Shown here: one piece after another, positions 41,006-55,032 of the stretch
How positions within the stretch are numbered: position 1 is the first letter of the stretch
How the letters are laid out: each line of letters begins with the position of its first letter
From: Bacteriovoracia bacterium
GTDB taxonomy: Bacteria > Bdellovibrionota > UBA1018 > JBFWNL01
Reading direction: 5' to 3'
DNA: 64,000 nucleotides
Assembly: GCA_050251055.1 (NCBI GenBank)
Contig: JBFWNL010000003.1
Coordinates: 1 to 64,000, forward strand
Program-made: the position numbers and the translations under genes
Notes under the pieces: generated by a model
The model's input: only the letters and a program-made list of their open reading frames with translations
Told to the model about the DNA's origin: nothing
Database searches by the model: none

Positions 41006-41192
41006 ACTTGAGCCCTGCGTCTACGAAGACACAGGATCGCGGCTTAGAAGGCTGTCGATTTCCTAAACGGATCTTTCGTCGCCCCTCCTGAATTCATTGG
41101 GATTTTATTTGGTCCCGGTCTTGCTCTTACCTATCCATAAGTTCAACAAATTCCGAAGAGTAAGTGACCGCTCAACCGATTATGGGCAAGGT

Positions 41193-43499
41193 ATGAAACG
41201 GGATCTGGTTACCGCATCTTTGATTTTCTTTTTCGGCGCCATGCTCGCGTCCATGCCGAGCTTCGCCGAAGACCCCGAGGTTGCATCGGCGATTGATCAA
41301 AGCATCAACCGCGTCGCCACGCCGGGACTCTACTTCCAGATCGGTACCCTCCAAGAAGCCCAGCTCGGCGACGTGCTCGGCGCCCACCTGCAGAACAACC
41401 CGCAATTCCTGCAAAAAGCGCTCGAAAAAGTCGAGGGCGCGCTGACCGGCTACACCGCGGTCCTGGGCCCGTTCGATGACGCCACGACATCCGGCGAGAA
41501 CGCGGATGCGATGAGCCTGCTCAATCACTTCTCCACGTTGACCCCCGTGGATGCTAACGGAAAGCCGATCCCGATCGTGCCGATGAAGCTTCGTAACGAC
41601 AGCGGCGTGGAGCGCGACGCAAAGTCGTGGTTCGCCGTCCACGTTCCGAAGCCGGTCGAGGGCCAACCCCCGCCCGTTCAGTTTGAAAGCGAGCTCGAAG
41701 CCAATCCCATCGAGTATGTCCCCTTGGACGATCAAGGCACGGTTCGCGTGACTTTCCGTATGCGTCGACTTTCCGCTCGCGTACGCGGCGCCCGCTTCGG
41801 ATACGCGTATCAAACTCCGGAAACCGTGGATAAGGTCGACGTCCTGGGTCGCCCGGTCTACGACTCCACGGGGCGCCCCGAACAAGTCCTCGTGCCCCCG
41901 ACCTTCCAAGATTTGCCGCTCGGCGAAGATGGCCAACCCCTGGATCCGATCGACGCTAGCGTCGATTTCCAGCAGCCCACGGTCACTTTCGTAGTGAAGA
42001 TGCCCGCGCGCGGAAGCTTGAAAGTGGAAGTACTAGACCTGCAGGTGAACCCGGGCCAGCCGGGCACCGTGAAAGCAAACATCGACTTCCGCCAACGCAC
42101 GATCCGCATCCCGGAGGTACCGGGACCACGTCAACCGGACGAGAGTTCAGTCGAAATCACGCTCGGGGAAAAAAGCGCGACCCAGATCCAGGATCTCGCG
42201 ACGACGAACATGGTGGCGTATCTCACCCGCCTCCCCACGTCACCCACTTTTCAGGAAAAAATGGTGGACCAAGCCAAGGTAGATCTCTCCACCGCCATTC
42301 AAGCCGCGATCCAAACCGAGCGCGTGCCAGTGTCCACGACGATCCCGATCAACTTCGTACGCATCCTGGCCAACCTCAAGGCCCAGATCGGCGACGGCTT
42401 GAGCCTGCGCCAGAACCCGATGCAATCAGCCCGCGAAGCTCCGAGCGAGCGAGAAGCCCGGCGATCGGCGGTGGATTTCCAACTGCTAGAAATCGGTAAC
42501 TCCGTGAGCGCGCTCCAGGCCGTGACCGACCCCGGTGCGCTGGAAAAGCTAATTCTGGGATTGGATGCGGTCGATTTGCTTTGGATTTCCAGCCTCGCTT
42601 CCCGGCCCAACGCCGCCGAAACGGCCAAGGCGCGGGCAGAGGCCAGACGGAAGCTTCTCAAACTTTTGGACAAAAAACCTTCCGAAATCACGGCCAAAGA
42701 CTTTAACTCCGTACGCGACGAAATCACGAGACTCCTTCTCTTGACCCGGGGGCAGGCAAGTTTGGACGGCGTTTTCATCTCCGCTGAGGAAGCAAGCTAC
42801 CTACGGCGCTACCGGAATATTCTCGACGGCATCGGAAAATCCCGTTCGATCGTCTTCAGGGCCTCGGAGGTGGGCACCGACCTTGAGCACGGGGTTTTCG
42901 CCATGGAAGCGTACGTACAGGGCGCCCGCCAAGTCTTGTACCCACTATCCGAATGTGACTGGCGCCCCGAGTTTCGGCGTGCCCGCGAGTCGCGCCTGAG
43001 TATCAGCCTGGAAATCATCAATAACCTCTTGGAGTTTTTCACCGACGCCGGAGAACTCGATCCCTTCCTCAAGGAAAGCGGCCTAAAGCTCCGAGCTCCG
43101 CCAAAGCTGGTGGCGATTCCGGGCACCAACCAGTTCGAGTTCCGCATCAAGGGCGACAAAGGTGGAACCCAGATCGATCTCATGGCCAAGCTTCGCATCG
43201 GGCCTTCGGCCGACGGCCGCGGCCTCCGCATCTATGACCTGCAAGCCAGCCGGACCGACGTCGTCGTGAACTACCCTTGGGATATTCTGGTGTCGGCACT
43301 CGATAGCTTGTTCGGAATTTCCGGCGGACGCTTCAAGGACGCCGTTAACGGCATGAAAACCAAGGTTGGGGAACCCATCGACATCCCGGCGCTCGATCAG
43401 CTGAAGCTGCGGGTAACCGACGTGAGCAACGACACCGCGGGCGTCACGAGCTTCTATTTCGTACCGACCAGCGCCGCAAATACGGAGGGCGCCCGATGA
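41193..43499 (+). CDS. Large secreted protein, BPI/LBP (TULIP)-like
   Basis: Signal peptide; PGLYFQIG near N-terminus; RLSISLEIINNLLEFFTDAGEL resembles the BPI C-domain helix. Confidence 0.75.
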   Translation: MKRDLVTASLIFFFGAMLASMPSFAEDPEVASAIDQSINRVATPGLYFQIGTLQEAQLGDVLGAHLQNNPQFLQKALEKVEGALTGYTAVLGPFDDATTSGENADAMSLLNHFSTLTPVDANGKPIPIVPMKLRNDSGVERDAKSWFAVHVPKPVEGQPPPVQFESELEANPIEYVPLDDQGTVRVTFRMRRLSARVRGARFGYAYQTPETVDKVDVLGRPVYDSTGRPEQVLVPPTFQDLPLGEDGQPLDPIDASVDFQQPTVTFVVKMPARGSLKVEVLDLQVNPGQPGTVKANIDFRQRTIRIPEVPGPRQPDESSVEITLGEKSATQIQDLATTNMVAYLTRLPTSPTFQEKMVDQAKVDLSTAIQAAIQTERVPVSTTIPINFVRILANLKAQIGDGLSLRQNPMQSAREAPSEREARRSAVDFQLLEIGNSVSALQAVTDPGALEKLILGLDAVDLLWISSLASRPNAAETAKARAEARRKLLKLLDKKPSEITAKDFNSVRDEITRLLLLTRGQASLDGVFISAEEASYLRRYRNILDGIGKSRSIVFRASEVGTDLEHGVFAMEAYVQGARQVLYPLSECDWRPEFRRARESRLSISLEIINNLLEFFTDAGELDPFLKESGLKLRAPPKLVAIPGTNQFEFRIKGDKGGTQIDLMAKLRIGPSADGRGLRIYDLQASRTDVVVNYPWDILVSALDSLFGISGGRFKDAVNGMKTKVGEPIDIPALDQLKLRVTDVSNDTAGVTSFYFVPTSAANTEGAR

Positions 43500-46042
43500 A
43501 AAAACTACCGAACTTCGATTGTTTTTCGTGGCGCTTGCTCGCGCTCGCCTTGGCGTTAGGCCAACCCGGAACCGCTGCCCACGCCGACGTATATTTCCGC
43601 ATCGGTCAATCCGGGCTGCAAAAAGTGCTGGAAGAGGAATTCGCGGCCCGAATCAACGGCTCGATTCCGCCCGAGTTATCGTGGCTCCATGTCGAGAAGC
43701 AGAATCATGACTTCCTTGTTTGCGGAAACGCGAATCGACTAGATGTCACGGTGCCAAAGTCTACGCCTACCGCCGGTCCGGTCACCTCCGCTTCGACGCC
43801 GGGAGCCGCCGCGTCCGTCCAGGCCGTTCGACTCCCACAACCTGCCGGCACGAGCCTCAGCTACGAAACCACCGAAAAAGGCATCCGTTTACGCTTCGTG
43901 CCGAGCGAAGTCGATCTAAACATCCACGAGCTCAACGCCAAGATCGAGAAAATGACCGTTCAGCAGGGGGACAACACGATCACGCTGAACAACAAAACCG
44001 CCCGCGTACGCGACCTGCGTATCCACGGCAACGACCCCGCCCATCCGCCGGTGGAGATTTCCTTCGAACTCGTGAAGGGCGCCGACGGCCTCTTCACGCT
44101 CGCGAGCTCCGACGTGAAGGTAAACCCCGCGTCCCTTACCTTAGAGAAAGGCGCGCTAGAAGTGAATGGCCGGCTGCCGGGGCTTTCTGGCGCCGAATGG
44201 GATACGGCGGTCGCTGACTTGGCTTGGCGGCAGGTCCTGGCGAACCGGGAAATGATCGCCCGGCGTTACGTCGAGGAAAAGAAAGCAGAACTCCAAAGCC
44301 AGGTACAGGCACTCGTGACGGAAAAACTGAATCCTCCTCTCCTGCAAGCGTATAACCAGTCGGTTTCCGAAGAAATCCAGCTAATGCTGCGGCAAATCGA
44401 ATTCGTGCAAAACGGCGTCAACGGCGCGCTTTACTCGCCGGAGAACTGTTTCGCGCTTTATCCAGGACCTTCGAGCGTAGAAGAAGTCACCACGGCGCGG
44501 GATCTGGCGCTCTTGCTTCCCCCGGACGAGCTCAATCACCGAATCCGCGAGCAGCTCCAAAAAGGCACGTCGTTCGAGCTCAAGCGTGGGCGCTTCCAAC
44601 TGGAAGACCTGAGCTACGTCTTCCCCAAGGACGGAAGGTACTATCTAGACGTCAAGGGCACGTATGAAACAGATGAGATCCAGGCACGCACGGGCGTGCG
44701 GGTGACCTCGGCCCAAACTACCGCCCACCTCGAAGTAGTGCCGAAGATCGAAAATGGCCAGATTAAGCTCTATCTTTATGAAGCGCCCGGCGCCGAGTTT
44801 GCGGCGCAGGTGCCCCTAAACGGACGTCCGAGCGAAGGCATCGGCGCGCGCTACCAGGTGACGGGCCGCACTCCCGACGGCCGGAGTACCGGGCGCGTTA
44901 CTTTAGACGACGGAACGGAATGGGTCATCGGCCGTGCTTTCTTTGAAACCGGCTTCGTCAAACTCGACCGCCCGGATGGCACCGAAGAAACCCTCACCGG
45001 CCAGCAGTACTTGGAGCGTAAAATCGGCAGTAAAATGAACAAGCAGGTATACGTGGTACGACCGCCTTCCATGCGCGCGCGCGCGGATGGGACTTTCGCC
45101 GTGAGCCTCGAGCTGGAATTGCAAGTGAAGGACTTCAAAGATGCCGAGATGATCGGAAAAAGCTTCGAGGTTTGGCAGCCGACCGATCTGGACCAGGTGG
45201 AGCGCGATAACGCGCGTTCGCGACTGCAATCCCTCTACATGCAGCGCGCCTTGGACGAGTCCGGCTATGACCCGGACAGCCGTTCGCGATCCGGGCTCAG
45301 TAAATACTACCAGAAAATAAAAGACATCCCCGCCGCGGGCCCGGTTACCGATGAGGAAAAACGATTGCATGCGATCGCCACGCGGGCACCGAATCCACGC
45401 CTCTCAAACAAACCGGGCGAGGGACGCTGGGTGCCGAAAACCACCTTTAATGTACAGATGGATCTACGAATGCAGCCCGTGTGGCGGAACGGGCGCTGGG
45501 AATTCGTCTACCAGAAAGTAGCGTCTGCGACTCTCACCGGCCTAGGGGAAAACACCAAACAGCGACGGACTCCCGGCTTTAAGACTTCGCTCGATCGTAA
45601 TCATGCCTGGCTCACGGACGGCATATTGGGCAAGGGACTGAACAGCACCCTTTTGGCCGAGAACGCCAAGATCGCCGGCACGATCGATCAAGAAATCCGT
45701 GGCACGACCAAAGGCGCGATTGTGCTTTTTGATGTTGACCCGAACGATCCGCCGATCCGCAAGACCATCCTGGAAGGCCAAGAGCTGGTACGCGAGTATA
45801 TGGGACGCGACTCCGATATCTCCCGCATGGGCATCGACGGAAACGGGCAGATTTACGTGGATCTCGCGATGACGGCGGCCCCCCCGGGCACCCAAACTCC
45901 GGCGATTCCGCCCATCGACATCCAGGGCAAATTTAACGACGCGATCCGCTCGCGCCTGCCGAGCGGCCTGCAATGGCACCCCGATACCTTGGGTATCGAC
46001 GCGGACGGATCACTCCGCGTGGAAGGTGATTTTTCCAAATAG
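43496..46042 (+). CDS. Large secreted protein, BPI/LBP (TULIP)-like
   Basis: ATGA overlap; signal peptide; DVYFRIGQSGLQKV; DLALLLPPDELNHRI. Confidence 0.75.
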   Translation: MKKLPNFDCFSWRLLALALALGQPGTAAHADVYFRIGQSGLQKVLEEEFAARINGSIPPELSWLHVEKQNHDFLVCGNANRLDVTVPKSTPTAGPVTSASTPGAAASVQAVRLPQPAGTSLSYETTEKGIRLRFVPSEVDLNIHELNAKIEKMTVQQGDNTITLNNKTARVRDLRIHGNDPAHPPVEISFELVKGADGLFTLASSDVKVNPASLTLEKGALEVNGRLPGLSGAEWDTAVADLAWRQVLANREMIARRYVEEKKAELQSQVQALVTEKLNPPLLQAYNQSVSEEIQLMLRQIEFVQNGVNGALYSPENCFALYPGPSSVEEVTTARDLALLLPPDELNHRIREQLQKGTSFELKRGRFQLEDLSYVFPKDGRYYLDVKGTYETDEIQARTGVRVTSAQTTAHLEVVPKIENGQIKLYLYEAPGAEFAAQVPLNGRPSEGIGARYQVTGRTPDGRSTGRVTLDDGTEWVIGRAFFETGFVKLDRPDGTEETLTGQQYLERKIGSKMNKQVYVVRPPSMRARADGTFAVSLELELQVKDFKDAEMIGKSFEVWQPTDLDQVERDNARSRLQSLYMQRALDESGYDPDSRSRSGLSKYYQKIKDIPAAGPVTDEEKRLHAIATRAPNPRLSNKPGEGRWVPKTTFNVQMDLRMQPVWRNGRWEFVYQKVASATLTGLGENTKQRRTPGFKTSLDRNHAWLTDGILGKGLNSTLLAENAKIAGTIDQEIRGTTKGAIVLFDVDPNDPPIRKTILEGQELVREYMGRDSDISRMGIDGNGQIYVDLAMTAAPPGTQTPAIPPIDIQGKFNDAIRSRLPSGLQWHPDTLGIDADGSLRVEGDFSK

Positions 46043-47818: not shown

Positions 47819-48949
47819 TTAGACTTTGGAGAAGTGGTAGCAGTAACTGACGGTCCGGTTGACGTAGCCGCGAATGCCGCGCATTTCCTGGGTCTTGAGC
47901 CAGCCGCGACCGTGTTTCTTCAGCGAAGCGTACACGCGCGAATAGCCCGCGTTGTAGCTCGCCAGCATGAGCTGCGTGTGCGCCATCTCGGGATCCGGGA
48001 ACGTCTTGCGGATGTAGTCGAGATTTTCCGGCGTAGACCAACGGTCCGCCAGGTAGTGCGCATAAGCGAGCCCGCCTCGCACCGACTTTCGGGTATCCAG
48101 ACGCCACTCGTTCTCGGGGTTCATCTTCTTGAGCATCACGAGCGCCCGCAACCAAGGTACCGGCATCTCGTGGGCCTGCGGGTAGCGTGGAAAGTCCGGG
48201 AACTGGTGGATGACTTCCTGTTCGGCGAGCGTGGTCATCTGCGTGAGGCCAATCGCCTTCGCCCAGCTGATCACCCGCGGATCAAATCCCGACTCTTGAG
48301 CGACGAGCCCCGCCGTGAAAGCGGGGCTGAATCCTTCCTTAACCGACTCTTCCTCAATCATTTTCAAAACGCGTTCACTGGGGGAAAAGTCCGCCGTATT
48401 GGAAACACTATGAAGCCGGAACGCCATGCACTCGGGCTCCTCGAAGCGTGCGTACCCATAGGCGCCGGACTGCCCCTGATAAGTGACTTCAATCAAATTA
48501 TCTTCAGCCGCGGGCAAGCGCACCACCGGCACCGTGAGCAAGATCTTCCGCTCCTCGCCCCGGACCGAGGAAGATGCCTGACGCATCAAGGTTTCGGTCA
48601 CGTCGATTCCGTTATGGAAGATTTTCACGGCGGACACATCGAGATCCCCTCGAGGATCGACAACCTCCAGCTCCATTGGGGAAGGTCCGTGCCACACCTG
48701 CCGCCCGGGCTTTCCAAAGTAGATCTTAGCCTGACTTGCCGGACCGTCTCCCATCGCTACCGTACGGGAACCTCCCACGCCGGCACGCCGATGAATCTGC
48801 TCACGAATATCCTCATTGACCCGGGCCGGAAAAAAGCTCCAAACCGCGCCCAAAGGGGTGCTTGGGCCCGCACACCCGGTGGTCCATCCCACGAATATCA
48901 CGGGAAAAGACGTTAGAAATGATAATTTTTTAATATTATTAATTATCAT
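47819..48949 (-). CDS. Lipoprotein lytic transglycosylase (SLT domain)
   Basis: Lipobox TTGC; AQESGF, AIGLTQM, LASYNAG. Confidence 0.85.
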   Translation of the reverse strand: MIINNIKKLSFLTSFPVIFVGWTTGCAGPSTPLGAVWSFFPARVNEDIREQIHRRAGVGGSRTVAMGDGPASQAKIYFGKPGRQVWHGPSPMELEVVDPRGDLDVSAVKIFHNGIDVTETLMRQASSSVRGEERKILLTVPVVRLPAAEDNLIEVTYQGQSGAYGYARFEEPECMAFRLHSVSNTADFSPSERVLKMIEEESVKEGFSPAFTAGLVAQESGFDPRVISWAKAIGLTQMTTLAEQEVIHQFPDFPRYPQAHEMPVPWLRALVMLKKMNPENEWRLDTRKSVRGGLAYAHYLADRWSTPENLDYIRKTFPDPEMAHTQLMLASYNAGYSRVYASLKKHGRGWLKTQEMRGIRGYVNRTVSYCYHFSKV

Positions 48950-48958
48950 TAACAAACA

Positions 48959-49011: not shown

Positions 49012-50211
49012 TCAGACTCGACGCAGCCGCGCCGAAAGATGCAAAAACGCCAGTGCCAACGTCAGGGCGGCCGAAAGCCACATGCCTGATTGATACGTCA
49101 GCCAGTGATTCAGAAGGGCCGCCGCCGCCAAGGTGCCCACGCCCCAGTCAAAAAACTTCCCCACCAAAAGCTCCAACCCCACCACTTCGGGAAACTGCTC
49201 CGGCGTGGCAAGCTTACGCCGCAGGCTCTGGGTGGTCACCGCGTTCACGCCGTTACACAGGCCAGAAATAAACAACACCAACAAGGCCCAGGCGAAGTGC
49301 GGAAGCTCGATCAAGAGAAAGCGCGTCACCGCCAAAACCGCCAAGGCCAGAAACGCGAGCTTCGCGTCGCTCAGGGTGGCGGCCCACCGAGCGGCACGAC
49401 TACGGCCCGCGCGCAGATTCACCGCCGCCACGAGCGAACCCAGACCCGTGAGCGCATAGATGATGGCCGAGTGCTCAACTGGCAAGCCGTAATGGTCGGT
49501 GACCACGGAAAAAAGCAGATAGTTAAAGAGCGAGATCGGAATCCAATAGCCCATCGAACGGATGAGGAAGATCTGCAGCAAGCCCGGATAGCGTCGCAGA
49601 TATCCCAGCGGACGCAAGGAGGACGCACGGACCGTCTCCGCCCGACGATCTCCCCGTAAGCTGGCGCAAAGCGAAGCCGATATCAAAAACGAAGTGCCGT
49701 CCAAAACAAAGATCCATCCCATCGGCACGATCTGCAAGAATCCCAACGCGAAGAGCGGGCCCAAGAACTGCGCACTGTAAAGCCCCTGCAGGATTTCCGC
49801 CTGAAGCGATCGTTGATGCCCGACTTCTCCCAACCCTTGCGAATACGTTTCGCGCGCCATCTCGAAGTACTGCTTCATCGCCGTCGAGAAAAAAACTAAG
49901 CCTAACGCCACCGCCGGAGAAACCGCGTGCCCCATTCCCATGGCGATCGCGAAGAAAAACAGGATGGCAGCCGAAACCAGCTGAGTTCCCACCAAAATCT
50001 GCCGCAGCGAAAGAAAGCGCATCAGATAAGGACCGGTCCAGCCGCCCACGCCGACCGCTAAACTCCGCAACGGCACGCTGTAGGCCGCGATCGCGACGCT
50101 ACCGGATTGCTTATACAGGAACACCACCCACGCGAAGTACGACAGCCAATCCCCGAAGGAGGTGATAAAAGTCGTGAACGAAAGAACTCGATTTTCCTTT
50201 TGCATCGTCAT
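49012..50211 (-). CDS. MFS transporter (DHA3/MFS_3-like)
   Basis: About 12 TMs; SFGDWLSYFAWVVFLYKQSGS; LGPLFA..IF.LDG.SF.IS. Confidence 0.88.
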   Translation of the reverse strand: MTMQKENRVLSFTTFITSFGDWLSYFAWVVFLYKQSGSVAIAAYSVPLRSLAVGVGGWTGPYLMRFLSLRQILVGTQLVSAAILFFFAIAMGMGHAVSPAVALGLVFFSTAMKQYFEMARETYSQGLGEVGHQRSLQAEILQGLYSAQFLGPLFALGFLQIVPMGWIFVLDGTSFLISASLCASLRGDRRAETVRASSLRPLGYLRRYPGLLQIFLIRSMGYWIPISLFNYLLFSVVTDHYGLPVEHSAIIYALTGLGSLVAAVNLRAGRSRAARWAATLSDAKLAFLALAVLAVTRFLLIELPHFAWALLVLFISGLCNGVNAVTTQSLRRKLATPEQFPEVVGLELLVGKFFDWGVGTLAAAALLNHWLTYQSGMWLSAALTLALAFLHLSARLRRV

Positions 50212-50215
50212 CTCC

Positions 50216-51049
50216 TCATGAACCTTCGTTCAGAATTTCGTGTGATTCGAGCTCCTTGCAAACTCCCACGAACAGCAACGGCACTAGGCGTGGATCCTGG
50301 GACGGGGTCTTCAGCACGACGTGCGACTGCACCCACTGCTTAAGCAGGCGCAGCTGTTCGCGCGCGGCACGGGCGATCTCCGGCTGCACGAGCTGAAAGG
50401 CGTAGGAAATCTCCTGTCGCTCGCTCCCCTCCTTGGACATATAGAGGGTCACCTGATTCAAGATGAACTCGTGAGCCTTGGAAACGATTCGCGGATTCGA
50501 GGAGCCGAACTTTGGCAGCCGGTAGAGCACGCTGCTCGGCCGGATATACTTATCGTCGACCTCGATCAGCTCCAAATCAGCCATCTGGGCGAGCAGTTTC
50601 CTGGAAAGCTTGATTTCCTGCTTCGGCACCCGCTCCACCAGGATCAAACGGCGATAGAATCGCATCGCGTCCGGCGTCTGCGTGAGAAAGTCCAGCTGCG
50701 CTTCACTATAAGAGCGGTGATCACGGGCATCCCATTCGAAACGCCCCTCCTCCAGCGACTGCGTGAGGTTTTTGGCCAGGTACTTCTGCAGCGGCGCCGA
50801 CGAAGCATCGTCCGCCAAATGAGAACTAAAATAAGCCTGAATGAGGACGTGGCGCGAGGCCGCGGGCTCGTGATTGAAGATCGCCGACAGCAATTTCGGC
50901 GTAGGGGCCTGCTTGCCGCTTTCGACATTTTGAAACTGACGGAAGGAAATCCCGAGTTTCTTCTCGCCGCCGTACCACTGGTACAGCTCGCTCACCGATT
51001 GGAAGTTTTGTTTCCCGCGCCTTTCCCGTAAAAATTCAGAGAAATTCAT
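50216..51049 (-). CDS. XRE-like HTH transcriptional regulator with C-terminal putative sensor domain
   Basis: FSEFLRERR...LGISFRQFQNVESGKQAPT; RBS AGGAG; 4 nt from the MFS start. Confidence 0.8.
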   Translation of the reverse strand: MNFSEFLRERRGKQNFQSVSELYQWYGGEKKLGISFRQFQNVESGKQAPTPKLLSAIFNHEPAASRHVLIQAYFSSHLADDASSAPLQKYLAKNLTQSLEEGRFEWDARDHRSYSEAQLDFLTQTPDAMRFYRRLILVERVPKQEIKLSRKLLAQMADLELIEVDDKYIRPSSVLYRLPKFGSSNPRIVSKAHEFILNQVTLYMSKEGSERQEISYAFQLVQPEIARAAREQLRLLKQWVQSHVVLKTPSQDPRLVPLLFVGVCKELESHEILNEGS

Positions 51050-51062
51050 GGCCTACTCCTAC

Positions 51063-51101
51063 TTGGAAATAAAATTTCCAACAAGGAAAATTTATTTCAA
51101 A
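51063..51101. promoter_or_regulatory. Tandem palindromic operators TTGGAAAT-AAA-ATTTCCAA and AAGGAAAA-TTT-ATTTCAAA
   Basis: Two 19-bp copies with 20-bp periodicity in the divergent promoter region; TTGACG at 51109-51114. Confidence 0.72.
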
Positions 51102-51162
51102 AGGGGGATTGACGAGCGGCTTTTGACTATGGCATCCCCTCTGGCGTGGGGAGATGGAATCA

Positions 51163-51384
51163 ATGAAAAACAAATACGTGTTGGTAGTGGTGCTGCTCGC
51201 ATCGGGATCAGCTTGGGCGAACGGCGGGGATGGAAACCGCGGTAACCCCCGGGACGGCAATCCGGATCGCGCGCGCGCCACGTTCGATGTCTCGAAAGAG
51301 AAAGCCTCGGCCAAGGACTTCGGTCTGATCAAAAACCCGATTTCGGGTAAGTCAGATCGCCGTCTCGGCGCCGAAGGCAACTAA
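51163..51384 (+). CDS. 73-aa secreted peptide
   Basis: Signal peptide MKNKYVLVVVLLASGSAWA; polar mature part with DGN/GNP repeats. Confidence 0.7.
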   Translation: MKNKYVLVVVLLASGSAWANGGDGNRGNPRDGNPDRARATFDVSKEKASAKDFGLIKNPISGKSDRRLGAEGN

Positions 51385-51408
51385 GCAAAAAACCGAGGGG
51401 AAACCCTC

Positions 51409-51480
51409 AAAAATAAAAAGGCCCATGCTCGAAGAACTCTAGGCTGTAACCTAGAGAAAGCACAGGCCGGTATTGCTACC
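51409..51480 (-). ncRNA. Candidate cis-antisense RNA in the operon leader
   Basis: Minus-strand TTGAAG-17-TATACG (51515-51487); long hairpin 51420-51468, then TTTTTATTTTT on minus. Confidence 0.35.
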
Positions 51481-51603
51481 AAGTTCCGTATACCGGATCC
51501 ATCGCACTTCTTCAAGCACTCGAAACGGGAAGACGATTTACCTGCCACATCGGTGGTTTGCGCCTTCGTGTTTCCGGGCCTTCAACTGAAGGAGGAAGAG
51601 CAG

Positions 51604-53286
51604 ATGAAGTCCGTAATCAATAAAACCCTAGGAAAGACCGTGTCGGGCCTGGTGTCCGTCAGCGTCGCCCTGAGCGCGGCGGCGCCGGCGTGGGCCGTGC
51701 CCACGGCATACCCGCGCCACGCGATCCCGACCGATTTAGTGAATCTCACTAGCTCATCGGCGCTCGCCGATAGCGAGCTGACCAAGCAGTACTACGTCAT
51801 GCCGCCGATGAGCGGCGTGGCTAAGCTGGCAGATCCGAAGGTTCATAGCGCGAATCTAGGATTTTGCGATGAGATGGTGGATCTCCAAGGCATGACCCGC
51901 GAGCTAGCGAAGCGAGTCGGCGAGCTGTCCCTCAAGATGACGGAACAGGGCGAAGAGATCATTAAGCTTAAGGTAAAGGCAGACGCCGCCGAGGCCAAAG
52001 CCGCGCAAAAAGCCGCCGAGAGCGAAGACCTACAGAAGGTGCAGGAACTCGCGAACCGCGTCGACGACATCGAAGACCGACTGACGAAGCTCTACGAAAT
52101 GCAACAAGGCGGATGCGAAGGCGAAGCCTGCGAAAACATCTCGAAGGAAATCGCCGATCTCCAGGCCGAGAAGCGAAACCTGGTGAAAGAGCTCGACGGG
52201 ATCCGGGATGTCATTCGTTCCGATTACAAAGCCTACATGCGGCTGCGAGCCCAGGCGACGGTAGCCCGCAAGGCGGTCAATAACGCCAAGGATACCTACC
52301 TGCAGCTCTCGATCCAGGCCGCCGAAAGCCGCCGGACGATCTTCGATATGTATTCAGATTTCGCCAAGCTGGAAGGGGGCTACGCGAACATCAATTATGA
52401 CTCCGGATTCGAGGAAAACATCGTCGAGCTGCGAAAAATGAACCCCCAGTACCAGTTCACGGCCATCCCGACGGCGGACGCGCGCATCAATGCCGCGCTC
52501 ATCGCGGGCGGCGGCGCCAAGGACTCGTATCTCGCCAGCCTACCGGCGGTCCTCGATTACACGATCGACGGCGTGGCGTACTTGCCCTGGGGCGCGAAGG
52601 AAGACGTTTCGCTTCCCGCGTATCCCAGCAAGGTAACGGCGGGCTTGCGCTTGAGCCTCGTGGGCGCGTGCCCCATCCACAAGCCGAAACTCTTCAAAGT
52701 GGATCGCGACGCGACCGGACTTCCGCTCTTCAGCATCGCCACCACCTACGAGTATCCGGCGGCGTTCCGGCAGCGCGTTTCGTTCAAATACAATCTGTAC
52801 AAGTTCTACAGCATCTTGCACGAGCAAGGTTCGAAGGGGGGATTCTTCTCTTCTTCGAGCTGGAACCGCACGACCGAGAACAACATCGTGCGCGACGGCT
52901 TTGAGATGGATTGGAAGAACGAAGACGGCACCGACACCTTGAAGCTCGAACAAAAACGCGAAATCGAGGCGATCGTGAAAGCCGAACTGCTGGAGCGCGC
53001 GCTCAAGGCATTGGCTTCACCCACCTTCGACACGCCGACCAAGCCCGGTGAGGCGCCGCCGGTTCCGGCGAACGGGGCAATGGTGCTGGCGAAGGGACTG
53101 CAGAAAACCTGCGGTTTCTTCAGCTTCTACTGCGTGGGCGGCTCGTGGCTGCTCAAGGGGCTAAGCGCGATCTTTGGCAGCTCGCGCAGCTCGGCGGAGT
53201 TCAAGCGGACCAACGACATCGTGATTTCCGAAACCTGGAAGTTCGATGAAGTGCACATGAAACCCGGCGTAACCGCCTATCGCTAA
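51604..53286 (+). CDS. Secreted protein with long coiled-coil hairpin and beta-rich C-domain
   Basis: RBS AAGGAGG; signal peptide ending APAWA; about 170-aa heptad region with CEGEAC; C-terminal TCGFFSFYC and amphipathic helix. Confidence 0.85.
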   Translation: MKSVINKTLGKTVSGLVSVSVALSAAAPAWAVPTAYPRHAIPTDLVNLTSSSALADSELTKQYYVMPPMSGVAKLADPKVHSANLGFCDEMVDLQGMTRELAKRVGELSLKMTEQGEEIIKLKVKADAAEAKAAQKAAESEDLQKVQELANRVDDIEDRLTKLYEMQQGGCEGEACENISKEIADLQAEKRNLVKELDGIRDVIRSDYKAYMRLRAQATVARKAVNNAKDTYLQLSIQAAESRRTIFDMYSDFAKLEGGYANINYDSGFEENIVELRKMNPQYQFTAIPTADARINAALIAGGGAKDSYLASLPAVLDYTIDGVAYLPWGAKEDVSLPAYPSKVTAGLRLSLVGACPIHKPKLFKVDRDATGLPLFSIATTYEYPAAFRQRVSFKYNLYKFYSILHEQGSKGGFFSSSSWNRTTENNIVRDGFEMDWKNEDGTDTLKLEQKREIEAIVKAELLERALKALASPTFDTPTKPGEAPPVPANGAMVLAKGLQKTCGFFSFYCVGGSWLLKGLSAIFGSSRSSAEFKRTNDIVISETWKFDEVHMKPGVTAYR

Positions 53287-53303
53287 TCGGAAGGAGCCTA
53301 ACC

Positions 53304-54350
53304 ATGAAATCCAAAACGCAGATGATCGTGGCGGCTCTGATCGCAGTCATGGGAGTGGGGCTTGCCCCCACTCCCGGGCTCGAGCAGAGCGTTGCTCAGG
53401 CCGATGAAGCCGCGCAGGAAATCGTGACTTCGTCCGGAGGGATTTATGCCTACGCCCGCGTTGGGAAAAAGGTGGTCGTCGTACCGTCGGCAAACTCCGC
53501 TCGGCTTCGATTGGAAAATCCTTCGTCGCGGCCGGTATGCGCGGACTTCGAGACCGAGATGAACCTGCGCCTGCAGTACGTCCGCTCGGTGTGCGGGGCC
53601 ATCGGGGGACGGCCCCCGCGCGGCTCGGAGGGCGCCTGCCGACAGGCAAAGGCCGATCTCGACCGCTCCCGTTACGCGCCGGTTTTCGGGTCCTCCGCCG
53701 TTTACACGTTGGCCGTGGACGGCCAGCGCCCCGTCAGCCCGGAGGATGCGCGTGAGCTCGAAACCCAGCTCTCCTCGCGCCTGCGGGTGTTGCCGAACCA
53801 GGTTCTGGTGTTTCCGGTCACGGCAAACTTCGGTCCCTGGCAAGGAGCCGAACTAAAAGTCAGTGAAGACGCCTGGTCCAGAAAGTTCGAGGCATGGGGC
53901 TTGGCCAGCCGTCCTTTGCGGGTGAGCGGCCTTGAAATCACGGTCGAAGGCGCGGAAGTGATCTGTGACTTGCGTGCGGGCCGGGCAAACCTGGAGACCC
54001 AGGCGCCCGTGGAGATGAATCTCAATTCGGACTATCTCTTTGAAGTCGACTTGGCCTGGAACATCCGCGAAAGCCTACGGGCCATGACCGAGGGAAGCGA
54101 TTGGAGCCCGCTCGAGAAAGCGGCCGGGCTTGGAATCGATATCTCCTACCTGCTCAAACAGTCGGGTCGGGGCAAGGACTTGGCGGAGTTAAAGTCCCTC
54201 ACGCTAGACCTCGTTCGCATCCTCTATGATGGCGAGCTCCGGATGCGGCCGTTCGCCGATCGGACACAGATGGAGCTGGCGTACTTCAACCGAACCGCCC
54301 GTGTCGTCACCCGGTACATAGGCCGCCACGACGAAGGAGACCCAGAATGA
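53304..54350 (+). CDS. Secreted hypothetical protein, possible distant paralog of the upstream gene
   Basis: RBS AAGGAG; signal peptide; colinear motif similarity. Confidence 0.8.
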   Translation: MKSKTQMIVAALIAVMGVGLAPTPGLEQSVAQADEAAQEIVTSSGGIYAYARVGKKVVVVPSANSARLRLENPSSRPVCADFETEMNLRLQYVRSVCGAIGGRPPRGSEGACRQAKADLDRSRYAPVFGSSAVYTLAVDGQRPVSPEDARELETQLSSRLRVLPNQVLVFPVTANFGPWQGAELKVSEDAWSRKFEAWGLASRPLRVSGLEITVEGAEVICDLRAGRANLETQAPVEMNLNSDYLFEVDLAWNIRESLRAMTEGSDWSPLEKAAGLGIDISYLLKQSGRGKDLAELKSLTLDLVRILYDGELRMRPFADRTQMELAYFNRTARVVTRYIGRHDEGDPE

Positions 54351-54637
54351 ACCGAGACTGGCTAGTGATCGCCGCGGGTGGACTCGCCTGGGCGCTCGTT
54401 GGATGCGGGAAGACGCCGGGGAATCCCTCCCCCGGCGGATTTCCCGCACCCGGGGCGCCCGCCCTTCGGCAGTGCGTGGCGCAAGCCCCTGTCCTGCCCT
54501 GCGGGGAAAGCCTGGAGAATGCGGTGTTGTATTTCGTGGAACTGCGAGAGCGATGCGCGGATGGAACTGACGAAGCTGACCGCCAGCTTCTGCGGCTGGC
54601 AAAGGAAATGGAAACTGACTGCGAGAGGAAAAGATGA
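54347..54637 (+). CDS. Small Cys-rich lipoprotein
   Basis: ATGA overlap; lipobox LVGC; four further Cys. Confidence 0.7.
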   Translation: MNRDWLVIAAGGLAWALVGCGKTPGNPSPGGFPAPGAPALRQCVAQAPVLPCGESLENAVLYFVELRERCADGTDEADRQLLRLAKEMETDCERKR

Positions 54638-55032
54638 AAACGAAATTTAGCATAATCGTGCTTTTAGCGGCGGCCCTGGCTGCCACGTTCGTGAGTGCCG
54701 GCCGCTCCACGAAGGAAAACGGTGTCCTAGACCACGCCCCCCGGAATGCGGAAACACCCCAAACGCCTTCCGGGGGCGTTACCACCGTGCCCGCGGCGAC
54801 CCCGAGGGCTGCGCCGCCGTCGCGCGGTAGCCTGGGGGAAACCCTCGTGGCGTTGCGAGAAAAAAGCCCGGCCGAGCTCCATAGCCTGCTGGCGGAATCC
54901 GAAGAAGCCCTGGATCGCGGTGACTACTTCAACCGGGCCAATCGCGACGAACTGGACGCCGAGGAGCGAGCGACGCTCACGGCTTGGGTCCGCACGCGGG
55001 CGATGATCCGCTACCTGCTGGCGACCCGTTAA
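54634..55032 (+). CDS. Membrane-anchored/secreted helical protein
   Basis: ATGA overlap; N-terminal hydrophobic segment, Pro-rich linker. Confidence 0.7.
   Translation: MKTKFSIIVLLAAALAATFVSAGRSTKENGVLDHAPRNAETPQTPSGGVTTVPAATPRAAPPSRGSLGETLVALREKSPAELHSLLAESEEALDRGDYFNRANRDELDAEERATLTAWVRTRAMIRYLLATR

Follow-up and report, generated by a model that had tools for sequence, protein, structure and literature searches.

A putative peptide density switch of conjugative elements ahead of an exported-protein operon in a Bdellovibrionota genome

A 64,000-nt stretch of a Bacteriovoracia bacterium genome (phylum Bdellovibrionota; contig JBFWNL010000003.1, positions 1 to 64,000), hereafter the window, contains at 49012..55032 a run of seven genes that raises the question of whether they are one cassette or separate units lying side by side. 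A first-pass annotation had taken the regulator, MFS transporter, secreted peptide and four exported proteins encoded here for a single conserved, self-contained antagonism cassette. We find that the cassette is two modules, not one. Module 1 comprises the regulator, the MFS transporter, a divergent Sec-type Gly-rich peptide and a structured leader, and module 2 is an operon led by a 560-aa protein, A560. Comparison across genomes suggests that module 1 is probably a peptide density switch that stems from conjugative elements of Bdellovibrionota and was captured here for an exported-protein operon.

In module 1, the minus strand encodes the MFS transporter (49012..50211, 399 aa, Pfam MFS_1 at E 1e-8), a putative importer of the mature peptide, and, after a gap of 4 nt, the regulator (50216..51049, 277 aa), a putative peptide receptor with an XRE helix-turn-helix (HTH) domain, a winged helix and an alpha/beta C-terminal domain. 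Divergent from the regulator gene and 113 nt from it, the plus strand encodes a secreted Gly-rich propeptide of 73 aa (51163..51384), followed by the 219-nt structured leader (51385..51603) that separates peptide from cargo. The gap between the divergent genes does hold the two operators assigned to it by the first-pass annotation, whose open reading frames (ORFs), gaps and overlaps across 49012..55032 were all recovered at the same coordinates. Operator 1 (51064..51080) is a near-perfect palindrome with 8 of 9 pairs complementary (shuffle p 0.007), centred 23 nt upstream of the regulator ATG; operator 2 (51085..51099) is an imperfect copy directly upstream of a -35 box, and together they form the inverted repeat I17. 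The -35-like TTGACG (51109..51114, plus strand) is assigned to the peptide/cargo promoter, for which a promoter search gave no good -10 and no full promoter. Of 21 regulator loci, 13 have their best palindrome centred 23-27 nt from the start codon of the regulator, and 13 have a TTGAC/TTGCC-type hexamer 57-62 nt from it.

Comparison of loci shows that the four parts of module 1 travel together in a fixed layout and that their usual cargo is predicted conjugation genes. The window regulator matches 12 of 401 phylum genomes, with relatives in Bdellovibrionota, Bacteriovoracaceae and Oligoflexia. Of 15 regulator loci, 12 have an MFS homolog immediately after the regulator, and 10 have a divergent Gly-rich ORF with a signal peptide at a distance of 96-188 nt; further regulator loci show the same layout. 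None of these 15 loci gave a BLAST match to any module 2 gene. An RNA model built from nine leaders, R1, provided a second route to the module, with 23 matches in 18 of 127 class genomes. Nine of these come from the training loci or from a near-duplicate; of the remaining 14, 13 were examined, one duplicate contig being omitted. Ten of the 13 new matches have a 244-302-aa regulator with a divergent peptide, accompanied by MFS_1 in seven cases, by a 414-aa ORF without Pfam match in one and by a contig end in the other two. Their cargo consists of VirB4-like genes in eight, lipoproteins with an ssb-like gene in one and an exported operon in one. Two other matches lie at contig ends with VirB4-like genes, and one (L175), beside ribosomal-protein/EF-G genes, is a false positive. 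None of the ten regulators found with R1 matches the window regulator in BLAST at E 1e-4, so that the layout is conserved across divergent proteins. Altogether, module 1 is found repeatedly in Bdellovibrionota, with several regulators that look unrelated, and in most cases it stands ahead of pilin/VirB4/VirD4 genes of conjugative elements. Its parts co-occur as a unit, and a peptide/MFS/regulator circuit, as first proposed for the locus, is the best reading. In a phylum-wide sample R1 matched only 2 of 150 genomes, reflecting either a narrow range or missed divergent forms, such as those at L071, L076, L078, L079 and L081.

The source genome itself holds a second module (L165, G000:C7:201842-215187), with a 259-aa XRE/weak DUF4423 regulator, an MFS transporter, a 63-aa peptide containing GGEGN, and a leader. 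This module heads an integrase/excisionase/VirD4/TrbI/VirB4/pilin element, followed by a HipA-like gene, and cross-talk between it and the window module is possible. At the left end of that element, a 45-nt stretch is 91% identical to C2:456002-456046 of the same genome. ARAGORN detected no tRNA where one had been suspected, at the end of this element.

A signal-like start and repeats of a G-x-E-G-N-type motif, often at the C-terminus, characterise the peptides. The window peptide has GGDGN after its signal peptide and GAEGN at its C-terminus, and GAEGN also ends the peptides of L085 and L166. The 23 module peptides, of 50-97 aa, have little in common beyond glycine and short repeats. They hold 15 occurrences of G.EG[NT] against 0.5 in shuffled sequences, 10 of 23 have GN within their last four residues against 1.2 shuffled, and 22 of 23 have a signal-like N-terminus in a crude hydropathy/charge test. 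G.EGN had been noted before the RNA-found peptides were collected, and it recurs there in L165, L166 and L168. Other motif types are GGHE(S/T)T, GGIGN and G(Q/H)GGNG. Short motif repeats behind a signal peptide look like a processed signal precursor; that module 1 acts by peptide signalling is our inference.

Several loci depart from this plan. Regulator and MFS occur without a peptide in L068-L070, L083 and L084, which could be listeners. L069, L070, L086 and L087 have regulator, MFS and operators but neither leader nor peptide; the divergent gene there encodes an AAA ATPase that on inspection looks like RarA, and these are possible orphan listeners. In L100-L102 the regulator relatives are shorter (~200 aa), no MFS accompanies them, and the divergent gene is ParA-like. 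In L088 (5.1-11.7 kb), the module has two MFS genes, a regulator remnant and, upstream of the peptide, an additional mini-ORF containing GGEGN; it lies close to apparent rRNA sequence. In L076 (3853-4827), the cargo gene that follows the peptide ends in an extended Gly-rich tail, whose numerous GGxGG/GQGGG repeats are reminiscent of the peptide motifs.

The leader, which the first-pass annotation had rightly called structured, folds with a z-score of -4.19, and 0 of 200 shuffles of 51385-51603 are equally stable. The peptide gene is followed, in order, by a run of A, GGCCC, a hairpin and other conserved blocks. On its minus strand, the leader contains a predicted promoter, TTGAAG-N17-TATACG (51487..51515; -35 at 51510-51515, -10 at 51487-51492), and a predicted antisense RNA of ~70 nt that closes in a long stem and a U run (51410..51481, minus strand, its start placed from the promoter). 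Across nine leader loci, 93.5% of cells are paired, compared with 37-57% for slid controls; 7 of 17 pairs changed on both sides, and 0 of 500 shuffles reach the covariation score, although the controls are inflated because the leaders are related and the structure was derived from the same rows. Many pairs are G-U, which favours the minus strand. The leader thus shows conservation with compensatory pairs that fits an antisense RNA, its best reading from these alignments. It has no match in Rfam, where only a sub-threshold neisseria_FSE (E 0.03) appeared elsewhere, and no BLAST copy elsewhere in the source genome. Just beyond the antisense stem lies a second terminator-like hairpin (51393-51410, minus strand), which suggests shielding of the peptide gene from read-through.

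Profile comparison places the regulator as a remote relative of the TIGR02147/DUF4423 families. It falls below the TIGR02147 cut-off (50 bits) and the DUF4423 Pfam cut-off (30 bits) and so matches neither family model, but it has their length and domain order, and hhalign aligns it to them at 81.5% (E 1e-5, 234 columns), compared with 0.07-1.3% for unrelated pairs. Other module regulators match DUF4423 weakly (E 5e-6 to 0.03), and a hidden Markov model (HMM) of TIGR02147 paralogs matches 9 of 10 module regulators at E<0.003. In the confidently predicted regulator model, PrgX and ComR match only residues 1-96, and the best fold match, 4G6Q (Kfla_6221), covers residues 111-267. Comparison of the regulator profile with PDB sequences gave nothing meaningful. 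A likeness to the flap and hood fold of HetR, the regulator of the HetR-PatS system, was unconfirmed: HetR appeared only in weak Foldseek rows (E 0.5-1.5) and was absent from the top 50 VIA rows. No tetratricopeptide repeat (TPR) family was found in the 23 regulator members searched, and without TPRs the regulator is not an RRNPP member.

In the mechanism that we propose, the propeptide would be exported by Sec and cut to a signal of 5-6 residues, here probably (G)AEGN, which would cross the outer membrane, be taken up by the MFS transporter and bind the dimeric C-terminal domain of the regulator. The regulator would autoregulate at operator 1 and act at operator 2 on the promoter of peptide and cargo, and the antisense RNA would set the threshold for read-through into the cargo. 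By analogy with iCF10 and PhrI, we marginally favour an activator that is switched off by its own peptide over feed-forward induction. L072 retains regulator, RNA and VirD4 and lacks peptide and MFS, which an inhibitory peptide explains more easily.

The layout of module 1 mirrors, with non-homologous parts, that of the Enterococcus faecalis plasmid pCF10 (PrgX/PrgQ (iCF10)/anti-Q). In pCF10, the gene for an inhibitor peptide directly follows the controlled promoter, and an antisense RNA controls whether transcription continues into the transfer genes (PMC6540685). The same source supports further likenesses: an XRE-HTH regulator, two adjacent operators, conjugation genes downstream and an element-encoded uptake component (PMC6540685). 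Module 1 differs in its Gram-negative host, in a regulator without TPR, in an MFS transporter in place of PrgZ/Opp, in a motif present in multiple copies in a Sec-type propeptide and in an antisense RNA apparently transcribed from a separate promoter within the leader.

RRNPP systems, which are described for Gram-positive Firmicutes, have been delimited by a propeptide of 10-100 aa, secreted by Sec, and an adjacent TPR receptor of 250-500 aa (PMC10075063). The window, with its 73-aa propeptide, signal-like N-terminus and adjacent 277-aa receptor, falls within these sizes and resembles systems such as ICEBs1 RapI-PhrI, in which a small secreted propeptide lies beside a 250-300-aa cytoplasmic receptor on a mobile element. 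The Rgg/SHP and arbitrium AimR/AimP/aimX layouts are further examples of the RRNPP type. The sensor of module 1, however, is a winged helix with an alpha/beta domain resembling 4G6Q, not a TPR domain. 4G6Q, which itself lacks the XRE domain of the module regulator, served as template for LugJ, a protein released from DNA by the peptide lugdunin (PMC11980582). By analogy, then, the system would work like Gram-positive peptide control of conjugation while not being a member of the RRNPP family. In the literature searched, which included few subscription papers, we found no description of the module or of the operon, no peptide signalling system of this kind in Gram-negative bacteria and no ligand for TIGR02147/DUF4423.

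Module 2 consists of four plus-strand genes, for A560 (51604..53286), a 348-aa exported protein, B348 (53304..54350), a 96-aa lipoprotein with the lipobox LVGC (54347..54637) and a 132-aa exported or anchored protein (54634..55032). A gap of 17 nt separates A560 from B348, and the later genes are coupled by ATGA overlaps at 54347-54350 and 54634-54637. All five plus-strand proteins, including the peptide, have an N-terminal hydrophobic segment in a crude hydropathy test; the lipobox bears out the earlier call of a lipoprotein, and for the 132-aa protein, previously called anchored, the segment is compatible with either anchoring or cleavage. As had been noted, these proteins belong to no recognised family: Pfam and NCBIfam gave only coiled-coil noise, PDB sequences gave no family for A560, B348 or the small proteins, and the Atlas gave none for the operon (best 0.79; the other search without usable match).

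Clustering at 50% nevertheless yields 641 representatives of the A560 family, and clusters of it carry the label hypothetical protein in Bdellovibrio and Pseudobdellovibrio species. Of 401 phylum genomes, 75 have a match to A560, and in ~50 of these the match falls outside the coiled-coil segment (row count). Among 20 fetched loci, the A560 homolog usually leads an operon of exported genes, typically A, a 300-390-aa B gene, a 130-160-aa gene, often a 200-290-aa gene (absent from the window) and a small lipoprotein. B348 is the conserved second gene, matching the gene after A in L031, L032 and L038 (phmmer E 1e-8 to 1e-3), with a family HMM as further evidence. The 132-aa protein, also a conserved member, scores E 3e-9 against an HMM of ten related-operon genes from which it was left out; the lipoprotein scores only E 1 against the small lipoproteins of related operons, which does not establish homology. 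The idea of an undescribed exported complex thus holds for module 2, as a conserved, unannotated operon with fixed partner genes. More distant genomes have two A paralogs; in L046-L050 each of the two A560 paralogs of an operon is followed by its own partner gene, which suggests a two-component complex.

The A560 model (predicted local distance difference test (pLDDT) 86) has a coiled-coil hairpin of ~170 residues (83-254), a hydrophobic helical hairpin that contains two conserved Cys, and beta strands 24-36 residues long, features that suggest an oligomer inserting in a membrane. A560 may resemble the cholesterol-dependent cytolysin/MACPF pore formers in being exported and in having long beta strands that flank helix-prone amphipathic segments. 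A560 differs from them, however, in its long coiled-coil insertion and fixed partner genes and has no Pfam, PDB-sequence or profile-profile support: the Thiol_cytolysin and MACPF Pfam models match neither A560 nor 33 family/operon proteins, and Foldseek searches of the model against PDB, viral and VIA-wide sets, in which the central twisted sheet with two unfurling helical clusters of such pore formers might have shown, returned coiled-coil matches only (residues 87-256). Separately, 5 of 251 phylum genomes encode thiol-activated-cytolysin-family proteins (L186-L190), several with lipoprotein-like N-termini. Tentatively, the cargo may assemble into an oligomer, secreted or in the outer envelope, that inserts its long beta hairpins into a membrane, while the small genes would serve assembly or self-protection; cargo function is the weakest step of our explanation.

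How, then, do the two modules come to be together? A conserved seven-gene cassette is the reading to which we give least credence. Its genes are contiguous in the window, and regulator, MFS, peptide and spacer do co-occur elsewhere, but each half mostly occurs without the other: all 20 loci of the closest A560 homologs lack regulator, MFS and leader, and the usual cargo of module 1 is conjugation genes, which largely refutes it as a conserved unit. The claim is partly rescued by L078, L176 and L180, where module 1 stands ahead of exported operons led by short A560 relatives without the coiled coil (HMM E 5e-5, 2e-10; E 7e-11); the L180 MFS would lie outside the sequence stretch examined. One of the 20 A560 loci, L034, has a divergent TIGR02147-like gene (E 0.0045). 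Chance neighbourhood, with module 1 a conjugative-element remnant beside an independently expressed Bdellovibrionota operon, also appears unlikely, if somewhat less so. The same 20 loci speak for it, as does the fact that in these searches only two of 401 genomes, the source (G000) and G296, hold both modules, those of G296 being on different contigs. Yet every part is intact, no gap separates the leader from the ribosome-binding site of A560 at 51589, and inspection of the window ORFs revealed no integrase, coupling protein, VirB4 or other element genes. Moreover, L078, L176 and L180 represent three other genomes in two other families with two regulator types, which would imply capture at least twice.

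An alternative of another kind, which we regard as distinctly improbable, concerns the peptide itself: it could be an effector, such as a microcin-like toxin or entry-exclusion factor, that the MFS exports or detoxifies and the regulator senses feed-forward, as LugJ does lugdunin. A small, secreted, Gly-rich peptide, a 4G6Q/LugJ-like sensor fold and MFS matches that in some cases include MFS_3 are consistent with this. A Sec-type signal, however, would make MFS export needless, no modifying enzymes are adjacent, the conserved part is only a 5-6-residue motif in peptides of 50 to 97 aa, and regulator and MFS persist in the peptide-less loci L068-L070, L083 and L084.

A captured peptide switch remains our preferred reading, and besides the inflated leader controls and the 20 module-free A560 loci, several results weigh against it. 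The motif patterns were picked after inspection of the peptides, 7 of 23 peptides have no typed motif, and 5 of 15 regulator loci have no peptide. Identical motifs accompany regulators without BLAST similarity to each other, leaving no clean receptor-peptide specificity code, and the antisense -10 box is poor in some loci. The profile match of the short A relatives (96.9% probability) spans only 84 columns, the second genes of their operons do not match the B348 family, and in three other short-A loci no module was seen in 1.5 kb. The cytolysin candidate stayed at background against five PF01289 proteins (hhalign 0.07-0.3%, shallow alignment). In favour of the reading, a complex prediction of the regulator dimer with mature peptide gave weak support, 0.34 versus 0.02 for the best control (runs 0.34/0.51/0.14, contact agreement at least 35%, partner pLDDT 31-36). 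In the calibration, 116 of 157 solved pairs and 2 of 215 mismatched pairs attained the mark, but only 18 of the solved pairs did so at <=0.60, as did both mismatches. Without a good prior, a score in this range is wrong in more cases than it is right, and the prediction made here differs in kind from the calibration set.

Cytoplasmic peptide sensing that controls DNA transfer is described, in the literature searched, in Gram-positive bacteria with TPR receptors. If our reading is true, Gram-negative Bdellovibrionota would possess a new, convergent family of signalling systems, with another receptor fold, an MFS transporter and an antisense leader, and module 1 would offer a compact, portable sender-receiver pair. 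A far broader and, in our estimate, doubtful extension is that DUF4423/TIGR02147-like regulators form a superfamily of Gram-negative cytoplasmic peptide receptors. The 33 chromosomal TIGR02147 paralogs of the source genome would then read G-x-x-x-G-N peptides cut from the N-termini of neighbouring exported proteins, and the module would be a dedicated form giving conjugative elements of predatory bacteria an arbitrium-like census, a switch repeatedly captured to make a new membrane-active secreted complex density-dependent. An N-terminal G-x(2-4)-G-N occurs in 6 of 31 TIGR02147 neighbours versus 31 of 926 exported-like ORFs (Fisher p 3e-4, a crude test). GAEGN-type hexapeptides would be a concrete test ligand for this large orphan family, and the widespread, unannotated A560 operon, present also in cultured Bdellovibrio species, merits structural study.

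Upstream of the MFS gene and outside the module, the window encodes a pair of large exported proteins, one of 800 aa and one of 848 aa that has no Pfam match, and an SLT-domain protein (41097-46042, plus strand; 47819-48955, minus strand).

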